Made by a program: the position numbers and the translations under genes. Under the pieces are notes generated by a model. That model was given only the letters and a program-made list of their open reading frames with translations, was not told the DNA's origin and ran no database searches. A stretch of 26,496 nt of DNA, from UHGV virus genome UHGV-0367640. The stretch is one strand, 5' to 3'. Source of the DNA: a virus. Positions 1-25,042 of the stretch are shown here, one piece after another; the first letter of the stretch is position 1; each line of letters opens with the position of its first letter.

Positions 1-803
1 CAGCAAACCCTCAGGAGTTTCAAATAGCTGTTCTTTTTACGGAAATACTTATGAACTGGCTGGAATAAAGTGCAAGAAAATGTGACTACCCTCTCATTTT
101 TATCTGACATGATCTGTTGCCACTCGCTGCCAAATTGTGGCGCTAAAGCTGATTAGCACGGTGATATTTGATACTCTGGCAGACAGCAGAAATAACGGAT
201 TTAACCTAATGATGAATGACGGTAAGCAACAATCTACCTTTTTGTTTCACGATTACGCACAACACCCCTGAGAACCGCCATGAACAAGGGTTTCATGATT
301 TGTGATTTTAGTTTGGTACGCAATTTGGTACACAACACAATTTTCACTTCAGCGGGTAGTCATCAAACTCACCATAACGCACTTCGTTGATGATGTACGT
401 GATCACCAAAAATATCGCATCCGGACTAGTTCCATCTTCATGCGCAGGCATATGTTCATGCCTACCTGTCTGCAAACCAGTAATAAGCCATTACAGGGTG
501 ATAGTGATGCATCAACTACGTTAAGCGCAGAGAAATGATGCAGTGGTGGGCGGATTGGCTTGATGAAAAGGTGGCATAGCGCCACCTACATCCCTGGGCA
601 ATCATCAAACTAACCTGCACGCGCATCGTTGATGATGCACCCATCCCATTTTTTTGATAGGATTAACACGAGAACAGAAAGAATTATATCTAATTGTTTT
701 TAAAGCGGAAATTTTCATACCATCTTTTCCATTACCGTTTTTATATAAATGTAATGAAGTATAGCTTTAAATGATTTAACATCAGGATATTATATAATCC
801 CTA

Positions 804-2003
804 ATGGTCGTGAGCGTTTTTATGTTTGACTTGACGTTTATTATCTTTATTTTATCTTCCATCCCTGTATTTTTTGTTTTTTGGATTGCCGGAAGGTTTA
901 AGAATGAATTAGTTGCAGACTCTTCTTTTGGATTGCGAGGTGATGACAATTTATCTTGCCTCAGGGGGTTGGCGGCTGTCATGGTCGCCCTTCACCATTC
1001 AGTATATATGTTCAATTATCTTTATCATGATAAATGGAGTATATTTTTGAATGATGGATTTGCGGCGAAGTCAAGCAACAATAGTTTATTGGCCATTGCA
1101 TATTTTGGCTCCATTCCAGTCATGATATTCTTTATGATTACAGGGTTTCTCTTCTTTAGAAAAATAATAAACAAACCAATAAACAATGCTGCAATATTTT
1201 TGTCGGCGCGAGTTAAGAGACTAATTCCAATGTATGCATTCATGGTGCTTTGCGTTGTTTGTGTTTCTGAATTAATTCGACCCAACGATAGCATTGGGAT
1301 TCACAACATTATTGTTGAAGTTGGCCGATATTTTACGTTTGGTATAATTGACCCTAATGGCCTTACACCTTCTATTCATGGATCTTTAATCGTTGGCGGG
1401 GTTATCTGGACTCTTGCATATGAGTGGGGTTTTTATATAATTTTACCATATATCTCTATGTTCGTAAAATCAATAAGAGATGCATGTTTTTCGGTAATAA
1501 TTATGCTTTTCTCGGTATTAATTGCTTACCGCCAAGAGCTTATCAGTGAAATGTTTGCCACTCTTCTCTTTTGCTTTATTGGTGGCTTTGTTGCAGCGCT
1601 AGCTTCTGGTTACCTAAAGAACAACGCTATCAAACAAGCCAATAGCGTAATGATGACAATTGTGTACCTTTTATCGCTTATTGCTGTCGCATACTGGCAG
1701 GACTTTAACATTTACAATGTTTACATAGTGATTCCGCTATTTTTGTTTTTTTTAAGTGCGTGTACTGGCTCCAAAGCTTTTCAAATTATAAACACCAAGT
1801 TCTTCAAGGTGGCGGGTTCTGTAAGTTACAGCATTTATTTGATGCATGGCTTAAGCATGGTAATGACCTTTAATTTCATTTCAAGCTCATTAAACTATAC
1901 TGAGTTTGCAGCAATATCTTTATCAATTTGTGCAATGATAAGTTGCTTAACTTACTTATACATTGAAAAACCCGCAATGAAAAAACAGTTTAAAAACAAT
2001 TAG
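804..2003 (+). CDS. Integral-membrane acyltransferase, acyltransferase-3 family (O-antigen/LPS O-acetyltransferase-like lysogenic conversion gene)
   Basis: 399-aa very hydrophobic multi-pass ORF with an N-proximal LRG-LAAVMVALHH motif typical of acyltransferase-3 enzymes; AT-rich by eye; convergent with the tail fiber assembly gene. Start uncertain: ATG 804 or ATG 822, no clear SD; a TATAAT at about 793-798 would favour a downstream start. Confidence 0.7.
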   Translation: MVVSVFMFDLTFIIFILSSIPVFFVFWIAGRFKNELVADSSFGLRGDDNLSCLRGLAAVMVALHHSVYMFNYLYHDKWSIFLNDGFAAKSSNNSLLAIAYFGSIPVMIFFMITGFLFFRKIINKPINNAAIFLSARVKRLIPMYAFMVLCVVCVSELIRPNDSIGIHNIIVEVGRYFTFGIIDPNGLTPSIHGSLIVGGVIWTLAYEWGFYIILPYISMFVKSIRDACFSVIIMLFSVLIAYRQELISEMFATLLFCFIGGFVAALASGYLKNNAIKQANSVMMTIVYLLSLIAVAYWQDFNIYNVYIVIPLFLFFLSACTGSKAFQIINTKFFKVAGSVSYSIYLMHGLSMVMTFNFISSSLNYTEFAAISLSICAMISCLTYLYIEKPAMKKQFKNN

Positions 2004-2011
2004 TTAAAATA

Positions 2012-2041
2012 TTGGTCTCTCAGCAAATGCTGAGTGACCAA
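2012..2041. terminator. Hairpin between convergent genes (candidate bidirectional terminator)
   Basis: TTGGTCTCTCAGC-aaat-GCTGAGTGACCAA, about 13-bp stem with one mismatch, between the acyltransferase stop (2003) and the tfa stop (2047); U-tract is weak on both strands. Confidence 0.4.
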
Positions 2042-2046
2042 TGAAG

Positions 2047-2478
2047 TTAAGCTGGCTTAATAGGCCATTCTATGTCGGGAGCCTTGGTAACATTAATAGC
2101 TTCCAATTCATCAAGATAATCCAGCCATGCACCATACTGATATTTTTCATCATTACGGAGCCGACCCATAGCCGCTTTTCCAGGCCATTGCTTGCTGTTC
2201 ATGTTAGAGTTGGCCTGTTCAATAAGAATCTGCCTCTTGCGTTCTGCTGCTGCTACCTGCTCATCATGAGTTAGTGCTGGTAGTTCACCCCATTCCGGAT
2301 AACCATCTTTTCCAGCGATGCGGACCTTCCCAGTTGGCGGTTCCTTTGTATATTCTGTAAATATATCTTCGTCACATTCAACACCATCAGTAGGCCAGCA
2401 ATTTCCAGAAATATAATCTTCTTTCATTGATGTTGGATAGAAAGCGTTATTTATTGCACTGTACACATATTTTTCCAT
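2047..2478 (-). CDS. Tail fiber assembly protein (Tfa/gpG-like chaperone)
   Basis: 143-aa ORF directly downstream of the tail fiber gene (3-nt spacing); size and sequence character typical of Tfa chaperones; ATG at 2478. Confidence 0.65.
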   Translation of the reverse strand: MEKYVYSAINNAFYPTSMKEDYISGNCWPTDGVECDEDIFTEYTKEPPTGKVRIAGKDGYPEWGELPALTHDEQVAAAERKRQILIEQANSNMNSKQWPGKAAMGRLRNDEKYQYGAWLDYLDELEAINVTKAPDIEWPIKPA

Positions 2479-2479
2479 T

Positions 2480-3175
2480 TTATTTACCTATAGCTATCCA
2501 TCGACAATAAGTTGTATTGCTACCTGATGGCTGGGAACCCATTAAGCTAAAACCAAGACCGGTACTAACGGGTGTAGCAGCAAAAGAAGGAATTGAATTT
2601 ACTGCAGATTCCGCATTATCATACGACACAACAATTTGCACGGTTGAGTAGTTGGTAAATGCAATGGGGAAATTTATAAAAGTGGGAGATCCAATCGCTC
2701 CTGCCACTGAAACACCACGTTGAAAGATAGTTCCATCAGGGTAACGACACCAGCCATTTCCACTTGTAAAGCTAGACATGTCAGGAATTTGATTGGTGCC
2801 GGTCCCTACATTTCTTTTAGCCGCTTCTCCCAAACCAAGGTTTTCGAGAGCCGTTGGTACCGTGCCGTCCGATTTGATATCACCAAACGGATTATTGCGG
2901 CTCAGGTATTCAACAGCAAACCCCGATCCCAGCAATTCAACAAAACCGGGCAGATCACCATTATCAAGCACATCCCGTTGCGTTTTATCACTTACAAACT
3001 GGGCCAGAGCTGCAGCAATAAAGCTGGCCTGCCGAATAACCTTATTGACTTGCGCACTGGATGCTTTCCCTGCTGTAAATCCGGATATAAGCGCAGGCAA
3101 CGCTTCCCATTCCTCCTGCGACATAACATTGGCATTTCGATCAGTTGCAAACGCTTTAAAGTCATTTTTCGCCAT
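2480..3175 (-). CDS. Tail fiber protein (short side fiber)
   Basis: ORF after the baseplate genes, N-terminus MAKNDFKAF... typical of enterobacterial phage fibers. Start chosen at ATG 3175 (ATGA overlap with upstream stop, GGGGAG about 10 nt upstream) rather than ATG 3193 of the ORF track. Confidence 0.6.
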
Positions 3176-3855
3176 CAGAGTAATACTCCCCATGCCCCTA
3201 CATCAAAACCACTGATGAATTCGTTATCCATATCAAAACCAAAAAATTTAGAGCCTTCCGATGGAGTTTCCACCGAAGGTGTTTCAATGCCCCCCGCCCA
3301 TACCCCGGCGGCTTTTACTGTTAGATACCCCTGTTTAATTGCCGCAATTAACTCACGCGATACATCTGAAATATCAGTATCAGGAAAGACCCAGACCGAT
3401 ATCGTCATGTCCTGGTTATCGACTATCTGCATTCGCAGCCCGGATCCTGCTGTTGCAGCGTCAAGAATTGCTGGAAGCGAATCATTCCGTCCGTCCCAGT
3501 TATTAATCGCAATCTTCGCTTTAAGGATGACACGATAAGTTTCATCGCTGAGGTACATGTATCCGGAATCAGGATCGTATGGCCCCTGCCATACACCCTG
3601 ATCATATCCAAGCCCGTCGGTATCCCAGCTGAAATAGACACCTGAGATAGGCTGGCTGACAACACGGCTACGTCCGATCCACAATCCCAGAATGTCAAGT
3701 TGCACACCAACCGCAGAGTCAATATCAAATGCAGTAATCAGCCCTCTGGTGGCCGCCGCAACATCAATAAGCGGCCGGGTCATCAGATCAACATGTGCAA
3801 GAAATTTAGGTTTGGTGGCGTGGTAGTTCGTGATTAGTTCGGTATATTTGCTCAT
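3175..3855 (-). CDS. Baseplate/tail protein (Mu gp48-like position)
   Basis: 226-aa ORF between the baseplate J-like gene and the tail fiber gene; ATGA overlap at both ends; product assigned by position and size. Confidence 0.5.
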
Positions 3856-6220: not shown

Positions 6221-6616
6221 TTAAACAGCTTCATCAGTCTTCATTTTTTCCCACTGAGAAAAAATAGTCTTAACCTCTAAGAGAGATTGCTGTGCCATTG
6301 CTTTATCTATTGCACAGCTAGTGAGGTCATAATCTGCTTCATTTCGAGCCAGTCTCTGTTGCTCAAGTTTGTAAGCCATGGATTTTAGGCTTAATGGATC
6401 ATATGGCTCCAGTTTGTTTTCACTCTTATTTTTAAGATAAGAGATAAGACTGGAATGATGATCCTTCGTATAAGCAGGAAGACTGGTCAGATTCTCTTTT
6501 ATTTCATGGTAAAGCGCATAATATGCCCGCGAAATAGTATTACGATAACCAACTTCAGAATCCTCCGCAAAGCAACGCTCCGCTGAAGATAAAAACTCAG
6601 AGCTAGTTATAGGCAT
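6221..6616 (-). CDS. Small HEPN-like protein (putative toxin/RNase-fold component of an accessory cassette)
   Basis: 131-aa ORF, ATG 6616 with AAAGGGTG RBS about 5 nt upstream; overlaps the upstream gene by 14 nt; N-terminal ...ISRAYYALYHEI... resembles the conserved helix of classical HEPN domains and fits Rx6H; AT-rich by eye. Fold assignment is by motif only. Confidence 0.45.
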   Translation of the reverse strand: MPITSSEFLSSAERCFAEDSEVGYRNTISRAYYALYHEIKENLTSLPAYTKDHHSSLISYLKNKSENKLEPYDPLSLKSMAYKLEQQRLARNEADYDLTSCAIDKAMAQQSLLEVKTIFSQWEKMKTDEAV

Positions 6617-7373
6617 ATTTACACCCTTTCAAGCTATTTCTTTCAACGGAAAAACGTGCAATAAGATTGCAATCATCAAGTAAATCGATTGAACAAATTT
6701 CATCTGCAAGTCGCATATTCATTGCAACCACCTGTTCAGGGGATGCATTAACTACCTCAACCAGATAAGTCCCACCAGATGCACCGTTGATGTCAGCACG
6801 ATATTCAGTTGGAGGGAATTCAGCCATGACTCTATGAACAGCAAGAGCAACTTGCATGTATTGTTCTGAAGAGCATCCTGACTTTTTGTATGCTTCATCC
6901 ATATCGTGAATTACCTCCTGCAAGAAGGCTTCTGCGTCATCCCTATGTTCTTCTTGGGATAACATTTTGCAATGACGTCCAAAATATTCTACGCATTTTG
7001 ATAGTTTCCCTACCAAATACGCAACGCCACCAGCCCTATAAGTAAACCACTTGGTTGGATACTTATCAGCTAAAGAATAGATGTAGTAGTCCGATTTTTC
7101 GAGTAGAGAAAAACGCTCAAGCAGCTTACAAAAAATCCGCGCAAAGTTAACATCAGCATGTGGGAGGATAGCTTCAAGCATTTCAATCCCGACACTCACA
7201 TCACCTTTAGCAATATGAGCCAAAGCTACAAGCGTGTCAGCAGGCGGAGTACGCTTAGAGCCATACTCCGAGACCACCTCTCGAAAGGTCCAAATATCAA
7301 GAGGTTGACCACTATTGATTATCTTAACCAACTGGTCAAAACGCTCTTCCGCTTTCAGTTTTGGTCTTGCCAC
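6603..7373 (-). CDS. Hypothetical protein, first gene of the accessory two-gene operon
   Basis: 256-aa ORF, apparent GTG start at 7373 about 23 nt downstream of a predicted sigma70 promoter; no motif recognised; AT-rich. Confidence 0.55.
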   Translation of the reverse strand: MARPKLKAEERFDQLVKIINSGQPLDIWTFREVVSEYGSKRTPPADTLVALAHIAKGDVSVGIEMLEAILPHADVNFARIFCKLLERFSLLEKSDYYIYSLADKYPTKWFTYRAGGVAYLVGKLSKCVEYFGRHCKMLSQEEHRDDAEAFLQEVIHDMDEAYKKSGCSSEQYMQVALAVHRVMAEFPPTEYRADINGASGGTYLVEVVNASPEQVVAMNMRLADEICSIDLLDDCNLIARFSVERNSLKGCKYAYN

Positions 7374-23106: not shown

Positions 23107-23631
23107 ATGAATCCTGAAATTTTTGAATCAAAGTTCATAATGAACGAAGCAACTTGGCAACGAATTGAAAGGTTAGTAAATACTGAAGATGATATTGGTT
23201 TGGTTTTAAGAGTACATCTGATTACAGAAGCAATGATTGAGGCATTTTGTTGCGCCGCTGTAGGTAACCAAAATCTATTTGATGGATTTGGTGAAAACTT
23301 AACCATGACCTATGCCGCAAAAATTCAGCTAGCTGCCAACCTCGGCCTAAATGAACACTCCGTCGCAGAACTTAAACGCCTAAATAGAATAAGAAATGTT
23401 CGCTCTCATCAAATAGACAACCCGGAAATAACTGACGCAGAAATTGAATCATTACGAACATTTATTAGCCGAGGTGGTCAGGAAGATCTCATTAACTCAG
23501 CAAGATTCGGCATAAAAGTTGGAGACATTGAGCTGAATCTTAACCGTCCAGATGCCAATAATCGTGAAAAATTCATAGCTATTCTTGGCAGCATCATCCT
23601 AAGGCTCACTAAACAAGTTGCAGGACAATAG
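23107..23631 (+). CDS. Hypothetical accessory protein with HEPN-type Rx4H motif (candidate abortive-infection/defense gene)
   Basis: 174-aa plus-strand ORF, ATG 23107 with AAGG about 9 nt upstream, divergent from the small terminase start 27 nt away; motif LKRLNRIRNVRSHQ contains RNxxxH. Confidence 0.55.
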   Translation: MNPEIFESKFIMNEATWQRIERLVNTEDDIGLVLRVHLITEAMIEAFCCAAVGNQNLFDGFGENLTMTYAAKIQLAANLGLNEHSVAELKRLNRIRNVRSHQIDNPEITDAEIESLRTFISRGGQEDLINSARFGIKVGDIELNLNRPDANNREKFIAILGSIILRLTKQVAGQ

Positions 23632-24212: not shown

Positions 24213-24701
24213 TTAATAGCCATCAGAAGTAATCGCTACAGATTTCAATCCCTCAATGTCATCCTTGGACAGGGCGAACCATTCACCGTGCTTTCTCTTT
24301 GCGGCAAATTTGCGATGAAGCATGTTTTCAGTTTCTCTTCCACCAGGGATCAGGCACTCAAGCTTCAAGCAGTCTGGTCCAGAGTTGCCAAGCGATTTGA
24401 TGCGTTGTGGAATGTTGGATGAATACCCAATTTTGGTTAGCCCAGTTTTCTTCGATGACAAAACGTATACCTGAGGAGGTTCTTTTCTCTGGTCTTCCAT
24501 TACACGTCTCATTGTTGCCATAAGTCCGCCGTGCATCAGCATTTCAACAAAGAACGCTGACCGAACACCTGACGACTTAAGCATGCCAGAAAATTCACTT
24601 GCCAATTCCATTAACTCTGCGATGTTTTCAGGAACTTTTTGGCAGTTATCTTCCTTGTATAAGGAAATCATTCTTTGAAGCTTTTCTTCTAATTGGTTCA
24701 T
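24213..24701 (-). CDS. T5orf172-domain protein (GIY-YIG-like superfamily)
   Basis: C-terminal half VYVLSSKKTGLTKIGYSSNIPQRIKSL...HGEWFAL matches the T5orf172 signature; start placed at internal ATG 24701 (AAAGG RBS about 10 nt upstream) rather than 24857 of the ORF track. Confidence 0.6.
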   Translation of the reverse strand: MNQLEEKLQRMISLYKEDNCQKVPENIAELMELASEFSGMLKSSGVRSAFFVEMLMHGGLMATMRRVMEDQRKEPPQVYVLSSKKTGLTKIGYSSNIPQRIKSLGNSGPDCLKLECLIPGGRETENMLHRKFAAKRKHGEWFALSKDDIEGLKSVAITSDGY

Positions 24702-25042
24702 AGCGTCTTTACCTTTTAGAAAGTGAGCCTGTCTCACAGAAAAGCCGCCCGAGAGAGGTTGCCACCTATAACGGCATTTCTCAGGCTCACTTACTGAAAG
24801 GCTCTCGTTAATATGCGCGTGAGATGCGCGGTTTACTGCAGATGTAAAAAGCCCCACAAATGCGAGGCTAAATCCTGGTATTTGTAATGACTGGCTCTTA
24901 TCTCAACGCGGCCCCTTACCGCGCGCCAGATGCTCAATCTCAAGCATCAGCAATGAGATGTTTAATCTGGATTCACTCCAGAAGTGATCACCACCCTGTC
25001 TACAGAGCCAGATGTGAAGGATGATGAGTAAAATTATCGCTA

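Follow-up and report, generated by a model that had tools for sequence, protein, structure and literature searches.

The question raised by the left end of UHGV virus genome UHGV-0367640 is what an AT-rich gene that faces the phage tail fiber genes encodes, and what its product might do to the host. We analyzed one stretch of 26,496 nucleotides (nt) from this genome, which is referred to here as the window. The original prediction described a plus-strand gene for a polytopic membrane protein with an acyltransferase-3 (AT3) motif, convergent with the tail fiber assembly gene tfa and separated from it by a long hairpin. It assigned the gene to lysogenic conversion, held that temperate phages carry such genes at this position, and proposed a homology search as a check. 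The sequence features so described held up in the work reported below, and the family tests together with the positional evidence supported the lysogenic-conversion reading. Our analysis suggested that the product is probably an OacB-type inner membrane acyltransferase that is carried as lysogenic-conversion cargo and would O-acetylate the host O-antigen. The most interesting aspect was that the gene is welded to a specific fiber tip and tfa gene, and that the resulting module has spread between prophage types.

The gene (positions 804 to 2003, plus strand) was an intact open reading frame (ORF) of 399 amino acids (aa), counted from the ATG at position 804. The G+C content was 0.34 to 0.35 over positions 1001 to 2000 versus 0.48 to 0.58 over the phage structural genes (about 52% for the phage), and no other part of the window was as rich in A+T. 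The protein matched the Pfam family PF01757 (Acyl_transf_3) at 80.1 bits (gathering threshold, 31 bits), and residues 49 to 380 corresponded to profile positions 3 to 319 of 326. The best PHROG was 3333, which is annotated as O-acetyltransferase (E = 1.8e-44), and RefSeq already labeled the gene product as an acyltransferase family protein. AT3 was the sole Pfam domain in the 399-aa protein; an SGNH or other periplasmic domain was not found. The C terminus lies 11 to 15 residues past the last helix, which leaves neither an SGNH domain nor a C-terminal 11th helix.

When 5.8 billion proteins were searched, the gene product fell into a single near-identical cluster of 91 members, all from Escherichia coli. 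The next-best relatives were 35% identical, and some 130 AT3 proteins (360 to 410 aa) with 24 to 34% identity ranked after them. A plasmid search returned only distant AT3 relatives (25 to 31%). The NCBIfam search of the protein yielded no match, the PDB sequence search yielded no relative, no PADLOC defense-system model matched the gene, and a literature search found nothing specific on this particular E. coli gene. Thus, judged by sequence, the ORF is a member of the AT3 family and of its OacB-like, AT3-only subgroup, and it is an ortholog of no characterized enzyme. The gene is an uncharacterized addition to a well-known kind of enzyme; the concept is not new, and the picture from Shigella and Salmonella is extended to E. 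coli prophages.

Pearson et al. described the features of functional AT3 domains: R/K-X10-H in transmembrane helix (TMH) 1, FFxISG in TMH2, and RXXR (PMC7448272), the last of which is located in TMH3 or the loop between helices 2 and 3. In the protein examined here, the R-X10-H motif corresponded to R54 and H65, the FFxISG-type motif to F109-F110-M-I-T-G114, and the RXXR motif to R136-V-K-R139. When 68 homologs were aligned, R54, H65, F109, F110, R136, and R139 were invariant, as were L116, F117, P142, W202, E207, Y211, G338, Y342, S343, Y345, and E388. The AlphaFold2 model contained 11 long helices and was confident throughout (predicted local distance difference test score, 91.5). It had the predicted transmembrane acyltransferase (TmAT) fold, as found in HGSNAT.

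The best match among all phage genomes, and the best characterized relative, was OacB of Shigella flexneri phage Sf101, with 25.5% identity across 87% of the query length. In a pairwise comparison, the two proteins were 25% identical (E = 2e-23) and collinear from the motif to the C terminus. OacB is a 390-aa protein that has been modeled with 11 transmembrane helices, a periplasmic N terminus, and a cytoplasmic C terminus (PMC8952252), and it catalyzes 3/4-O-acetylation of RhaIII and 6-O-acetylation of N-acetylglucosamine (GlcNAc). Both proteins are about 390 aa long, are AT3 only, and have a predicted 11-helix topology with an extra N-terminal helix. Six of the seven residues that are critical in OacB (R47, H58, W71, F98, R116, R119, and S146) were kept as R54, H65, W78, F117, R136, and R139. 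Four motifs are known from the OacB family: DGxRGxLAxxVxxHH, FFxITG(Y/F)LFxxK, WxLxYEWxFY, and YSxYLxHG (PMC4159516). Motifs 2 to 4 were matched exactly, by FFMITGFLFFRK, WTLAYEWGFY, and YSIYLMHG, respectively. At 25% identity, however, the protein did not reach the high identity expected of an OacB ortholog, and therefore its specificity is not inferable from that of OacB.

The original prediction also held that the hydrophobic N-terminal extension ahead of the motif was unusually long and that the true start was uncertain. The hydrophobic stretch was real: the predicted topology contained a hydrophobic helix at residues 10 to 32 and then R31/K33. It was not unusual, because an extra N-terminal hydrophobic helix was present in 63 of the 68 homologs (median, 46 residues ahead of the motif arginine) and in OacB. 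The stretch is thus a conserved extra transmembrane helix, which is a feature of the family rather than an oddity. The uncertainty about the start was narrowed to the ATG codons at 804 and 822, which place 53 and 47 residues, respectively, ahead of the motif arginine and yield proteins that differ by six residues. We considered whether the start had been called too far upstream and really lies close to the motif. This idea was rejected, since the reading frame has no further ATG from 822 to M60 and the helix was conserved in the homologs and in OacB. Public gene callers use both starts, which gives rise to 393/395-aa and 399/401-aa forms. Based on the alignments, the ATG at 822 (393 aa) seemed the more likely start and the ATG at 804 the less likely one.

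Two alleles of the gene were seen. The A6 run at positions 1980 to 1985 was A8 in the second allele (carriers H1, H2, L003, and L004), and the protein ended with ...KKNSLKTIS where the A6 allele ended with ...KKQFKNN. The second allele also had four synonymous and three to four nonsynonymous substitutions. A T8 run within the gene (positions 1746 to 1753) was invariant among the loci examined.

The position of the gene supplied the strongest indirect argument for the lysogenic-conversion reading. Window positions 228 to 476 were 87 to 92% identical to attP-proximal DNA of phages mEp234 and Sf101. Because positions 228 to 476 and 469 to 574 were 87% identical to the Sf101 DNA between int and oacB, the gene occupies the slot that holds oacB in a phage that integrates at sbcB. 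The homology with phage Sf6 and with E. coli K-12 was near perfect as far as the stop codon of the integrase gene, where it ceased, and each element carried separate cargo beyond that point. In Sf6, oac was in the slot, with a terminator after it and then the tailspike gene in convergent orientation. In K-12, gtrA, gtrB, and gtrS filled the slot between intS and a minus-strand tfa gene. Thus, every characterized occupant that we examined of the slot that follows IntS or the IntS stub (oac, oacB, and gtrABS) was an O-antigen modifier.

The resemblance to Sf101 extended beyond the slot, as Sf101 also integrates at sbcB, has an identical 13-bp attachment (att) core, has the S24 remnant and IntS stub in the flank upstream of oacB, and carries oacB convergent with a receptor-binding gene. 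The two phages differ in that Sf101 has a P22-like tailspike and an S. flexneri host, whereas the gene examined here faces the fiber and tfa genes of a baseplate-bearing (myovirus-type) tail in E. coli (both typed carriers were O16). Shigella phage Sf6 likewise has an AT3-only O-antigen acetyltransferase, Oac (OacA); its gene comes right after that of an IntS-type integrase and converges on a receptor-binding gene across a terminator. In contrast to the protein described here, Sf6 Oac is 333 aa long and lacks the extra N-terminal helix; the similarity between the two was weak and local (27% over 207 residues, E = 6e-5). The cryptic K-12 prophage CPS-53 has gtrABS (yfdG, yfdH, and yfdI) in the same slot, and its gene order, fadL-yfdF-mlaA-yfdC-(argW)-intS-[cargo]-tfa-fiber, was that of the argW-site carriers of the acyltransferase. 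The CPS-53 cargo differs in that it glucosylates O-antigen by means of three proteins that are unrelated to the acyltransferase.

In the case of Salmonella OafA and OafB, the likeness lies in an AT3 core with the R/K-X10-H, FFxISG, and RXXR motifs and in the same model of acetyl-CoA-derived transfer across the membrane; OafB is also prophage borne. OafA and OafB have a fused SGNH domain and a C-terminal 11th helix, whereas the extra helix is N terminal here. Because an SGNH domain was absent, the protein was not of the OafA, OafB, or OatA type. A further difference was that no Dam/OxyR-type GATC signature of phase variation was found upstream of the gene. A Dam/OxyR switch of the gtr/oafB type was accordingly rejected: there was no GATC upstream of the gene, between 402 and 1380, and GATC sites were located only at 401 and 1381.

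The exact 393-aa protein was found in 117 blocks of an assembly collection, and the 24 contigs that we read placed the gene in three chromosomal contexts. It was located beside dacD (as in the window), beside ybhB-bioA (the lambda att side), or, most commonly, directly after an intact 385-aa integrase gene at fadL-yfdF-mlaA-yfdC (the argW site). The integrase upstream of the gene in the argW context (L021) was 99% identical to K-12 CPS-53 IntS and to Sf6 Int. Among the 10 loci returned by the exact-protein look-up, which covered all three sites, the DNA of the coding sequence matched exactly in nine, and the tenth differed by one synonymous base. The gene was rare among complete genomes (2 of 5,426 from E. 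coli). Both complete carriers had an O16-type rfb cluster (rmlBDAC, glf, and wbbI-L) with identical neighboring proteins, a finding that is compatible with, but does not prove, a rhamnose/GlcNAc-containing acceptor. In the complete genome EH01-18-04-A, which had the same locus, the prophage extended about 42 kb from the gene to an integrase gene beside sbcB; its early genes were lambdoid, and its tail had a baseplate. The prophage of carrier H1 looked complete.

The two complete carriers, L015 (NZ_CP063515.1) and L019 (NZ_CP131685.1), were human isolates from a rectal swab in Laos and from urine in Taiwan, respectively, and in both, the O16-type cluster lay just about 17 kb past the sbcB end of the prophage. 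Receptor-binding genes also adjoined the genes of some distant relatives of the protein, in agreement with the conversion reading: P0010 was encoded in a P2-like prophage, where tfa and the sheath gene flank it, and P0007 was encoded in a prophage beside a tailspike-like gene.

Comparison of the three contexts indicated that the gene moves as part of a composite module. The DNA that the contexts had in common ran from window position 519 to 2839 or 2902, with at least 99.2% identity. The IntS stub formed the left edge in all carriers outside the dacD site, and the right edge at 2839 fell in the middle of TTCTCCCAAACCAAGGTTTTCGAGAG, a Pin/Gin-type crossover site at the junction between the constant and variable parts of the fiber gene, where homology with other prophages broke at 2824 to 2839. 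The variable fiber tip (2480 to about 2824) moved together with tfa and the acyltransferase gene, as judged by homology breakpoints, and the tail backbones past the module differed (Mu Gp45-48-type baseplates versus Wedge1/baseplate J types). Past the fiber gene, the window carried a wedge protein gene (DUF2612) and a baseplate J gene. Some 112 nt at the end of tfa (2047 to 2158) were restricted to modules that carried the acyltransferase gene; since relatives without it matched only from 2159 or 2162 onward, the junction was placed inside the last 112 nt of tfa.

The same 26-bp crossover site, together with an inverted partner beside pinE, bounds the invertible P segment of the K-12 element e14, where it also lies at the constant/variable junction of the fiber gene. 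In contrast to e14, the window lacked the tfa' gene, the fiber' tip, the invertase gene, and the partner site, and acyltransferase cargo was present in their place. Because the partner site and invertase were absent from the window, the formerly invertible fiber is fixed in one orientation. Five other complete genomes carried the same fiber tip and tfa without the acyltransferase gene, and in these genomes the pair made up half of an invertible segment that also included another tfa gene, another tip, and a recombinase gene and that was seen in both orientations. In addition, one relative at the dacD site had pinE in place of the acyltransferase gene. As the tip and tfa were found elsewhere in Pin segments and pinE replaced the acyltransferase gene in the dacD-site relative, the alignments indicated that the module is half of a Pin-invertible fiber segment joined to the cargo slot next to IntS.

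We also considered whether the acyltransferase gene itself is invertible via a partner pix site and an invertase. This idea was rejected, as the window contained one copy of the site and no invertase. A literature search that used the crossover-site sequence as text returned nothing specific. In L033 (NZ_CP063369.1) and L034 (NZ_OY754353.1), the Pin-type invertible segment that carries the fiber tip and tfa was present in opposite orientations, and the recombinase gene was annotated as frameshifted in both.

By analogy with work on OafA/OafB, Oac, and OacB (PMC7448272, PMC9833829, and PMC8952252), we propose that the protein would act as follows. It would be autonomous cargo of a lambdoid prophage that integrates at sbcB, situated at the end nearest att, and its architecture would be one extra N-terminal helix plus a 10-helix AT3 core. 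Acetyl-CoA would enter the pore from the cytoplasm and be held by R54 and R136-x-x-R139, the acetyl group would be passed via H65, and a hydroxyl of a sugar in the O-antigen repeat would receive it at the periplasmic face without an SGNH partner. The 42-residue loop at positions 159 to 200 would be the likely acceptor-binding region. The altered O-antigen epitope of the lysogen would probably hinder phages, and possibly antibodies, that recognize the unmodified polymer. Transcription would most likely start in the gene's own upstream region in the lysogen and run opposite to the late operon, with the hairpin as an insulator. The opposite orientation, the hairpin, and the conserved upstream region of 224 to 242 nt all suggested such autonomous expression in the lysogen, and a moron would be consistent with the low G+C content, with this orientation, and with a hairpin that resembles a terminator. 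The sequence data establish that the protein belongs to the AT3 family with its motifs intact, where the gene lies, and that the module is mobile, and they predict the fold; acetyl as the transferred group, the O-antigen as its acceptor, expression in the lysogen, and exclusion of phages are inferred.

A different view of the cargo is that it is not a free-standing moron but part of a portable "bind-and-mask" module (fiber tip, tfa, and acyltransferase; about 519 to 2838) in which the enzyme modifies exactly the receptor of the tip. We regard this idea as tentative and, on balance, doubtful. Such a module might have originated when an IntS-adjacent conversion slot fused to half of a Pin-invertible fiber segment, and it might have spread as one unit between tail backbones that are unrelated to each other and to at least three integration sites, with the pix site as one edge of recombination. 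If this idea is correct, then host range and self-exclusion would be inherited together.

Several observations weighed against an OacB-type O-antigen acetyltransferase. Acceptor specificity is not transferable from OacB at 25% identity, and we found no experimental data on the protein or on any relative with more than 35% identity to it. The critical loop serine of OacB (S146) aligned with G165, with S163 nearby. In the first OacB motif, which reads SCLRGLAAVMVALHH here, the R, G, A, V, and HH were kept, and S51, C52, and A57 replaced the D, G, and L. The promoter scan and a reading of the sequence revealed no convincing σ70 promoter or Shine-Dalgarno sequence ahead of the gene; the promoter-like hexamers that were present were weak, namely TTTAAA (766 to 771) with TATTAT (788 to 793) and a perfect TATAAT (793 to 798) without a −35 element. 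Only two complete carriers were typed, and both were O16 and probably represent a single lineage. The acceptors of AT3 proteins are very diverse and include enterobacterial common antigen, osmoregulated periplasmic glucans, capsules, and other glycans (reviewed in PMC9558356). Finally, the nearest non-E. coli homologs (35% identity; Franconibacter and a relative) were chromosomal, between yedK and fliE, and thus the subfamily is not confined to phage conversion.

The diversity of AT3 acceptors leaves room for an active enzyme that uses another envelope glycan, such as enterobacterial common antigen (as WecH does), group 1 to 4 capsule or colanic acid, the lipopolysaccharide core, or periplasmic glucans, or that transfers a group other than acetyl. 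The identity of 25% or less to any characterized enzyme agrees with this alternative, as do the location of the nearest non-E. coli homologs near flagellar loci with no O-antigen link and the location of the distant relative P0014 in a chromosomal island beside Mig-14. We nevertheless consider it unlikely, given that the slot holds O-antigen modifiers in every characterized case examined and that both the best characterized match and the best PHROG are O-antigen acetyltransferases; the tight linkage to the fiber tip also suggests a target related to the phage receptor. A silent or nonfunctional hitchhiker of the fiber tip and tfa module, whether because H-NS silences the AT-rich DNA or because the changes in motif 1 disable the enzyme, seemed quite improbable. 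The full-length ORF and all catalytic residues were kept in 117 blocks and in two alleles, and the AlphaFold2 confidence noted above also speaks against it. The G+C content of 34 to 35%, the lack of a clear promoter or Shine-Dalgarno sequence, and the rarity of the gene among complete genomes would fit a silent gene. The same is true of S51, C52, and A57, which depart from a near-invariant DGxRGxLA, but the equivalent change of the aspartate in OacB (D44A) leaves that enzyme active. The variable C-terminal tail with its A6/A8 run could be taken in the same sense; with either run, however, the protein ends within a few residues of the last helix.

If the OacB-type acyltransferase is active, it would add a new O-acetyl (or other acyl) modification to an E. 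coli surface polysaccharide, and such a modification could change serotyping, the epitopes of glycoconjugate vaccines, and the sensitivity to therapeutic phages. The locus also illustrates how conversion genes spread, as the IntS slot has been reused for oac, oacB, gtrABS, and the present gene, and here the cargo is welded to a particular fiber tip and has moved between prophage types.

The features that surround the acyltransferase gene are listed in Table 1.

Table 1. Features flanking the acyltransferase gene in the window
Feature	Position	Strand	Evidence
13-bp att core CGTAATCGTGAAA	245..257	-	Exact match; 0.03 expected by chance
Remnant of S24/UmuD-like (HumD) phage peptidase gene	344..528	-	RefSeq "S24 family peptidase" pseudogenes at matching positions in relatives
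3' stub of IntS-type integrase gene (last 20 codons + stop)	519..579	+	Alignment to the intS 3' end of Sf6 and K-12
AT-rich upstream region	580..821	+	At least 98.9% identity across the three chromosomal contexts
Hairpin between convergent stop codons	2010..2043		14-bp stem; free energy (dG), -23.1 kcal/mol; z, -5.7
Tail fiber assembly gene tfa	2047..2478	-	Pfam Caudo_TAP, 101 bits
Tail fiber gene, gp53-like C-terminal tip	2480..3193	-	Pfam Gp53-like_C; PHROG tail fiber families
Pin/Gin-type crossover site TTCTCCCAAACCAAGGTTTTCGAGAG	2825..2850	+	Same 26-mer at the K-12 e14 P segment

The hairpin sits in a 43-nt intergenic gap, and none of 200 shuffled sequences folded as well. Read along the minus strand, the hairpin leads into AATATTTTAAC, and it was kept throughout the shared module. 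It is a probable terminator, and an annotated terminator is present at the same spot in Sf6, between oac and the tailspike gene.

At the left end of the window, positions 1 to 244 corresponded to the DNA that follows dacD in E. coli chromosomes. The att core is known from the sbcB-integrating lambdoid phages 2851 and Sf101 (PMC4159516), and it marks the junction between prophage and chromosome on the dacD side. The idea that positions 1 to 640 were merely chromosomal was rejected, as positions 258 to 640 were shown to be phage derived by the att core and by the homology with intS and with the phages Sf101 and mEp234. The IntS stub was stranded upstream of the acyltransferase gene, even though the prophage's own integrase gene lies at the opposite end, beside sbcB. 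The DNA of the S24/UmuD-like remnant contained a 45-nt direct repeat (354 to 398 and 596 to 640) with 80% identity between the copies, and the 242 nt between the copies were absent from H1, H2, L003, and L023, as if deleted by recombination.

A 22-nt inverted repeat (683 to 704 and 1989 to 2010; 20 of 22 positions complementary) was considered as a cassette boundary and rejected. The repeat was probably due to chance, because about 6% of shuffled sequences had an equal one and the true module edges were at 519 and 2839. Its right arm overlapped the stop codon of the acyltransferase gene.

An Rfam scan of the entire window found no family. The remaining observations concerned other parts of the window. 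Positions 6221 to 7373 (minus strand) formed an island of lower G+C content (0.41 to 0.43) within the tail module, between the spike and baseplate genes. The island ORFs (131 and 256 aa) matched PHROGs 5176 and 17809, which are of unknown function, and had no Pfam or PADLOC match. The otherwise near-identical H1 prophage had other small genes at this site (a DUF4282 gene and a hypothetical gene), and the island looks like a second variable cargo site. A low-G+C stretch was also present between the small terminase and lysis genes. It contained a 174-aa ORF at 23107 to 23631 (plus strand; PHROG 5483, function unknown) and a 214-aa ORF at 24213 to 24857 (minus strand) with a T5orf172/MUG113 (GIY-YIG-like) domain and a weak match to the candidate defense model PDC-S57 (E = 1.2e-5).

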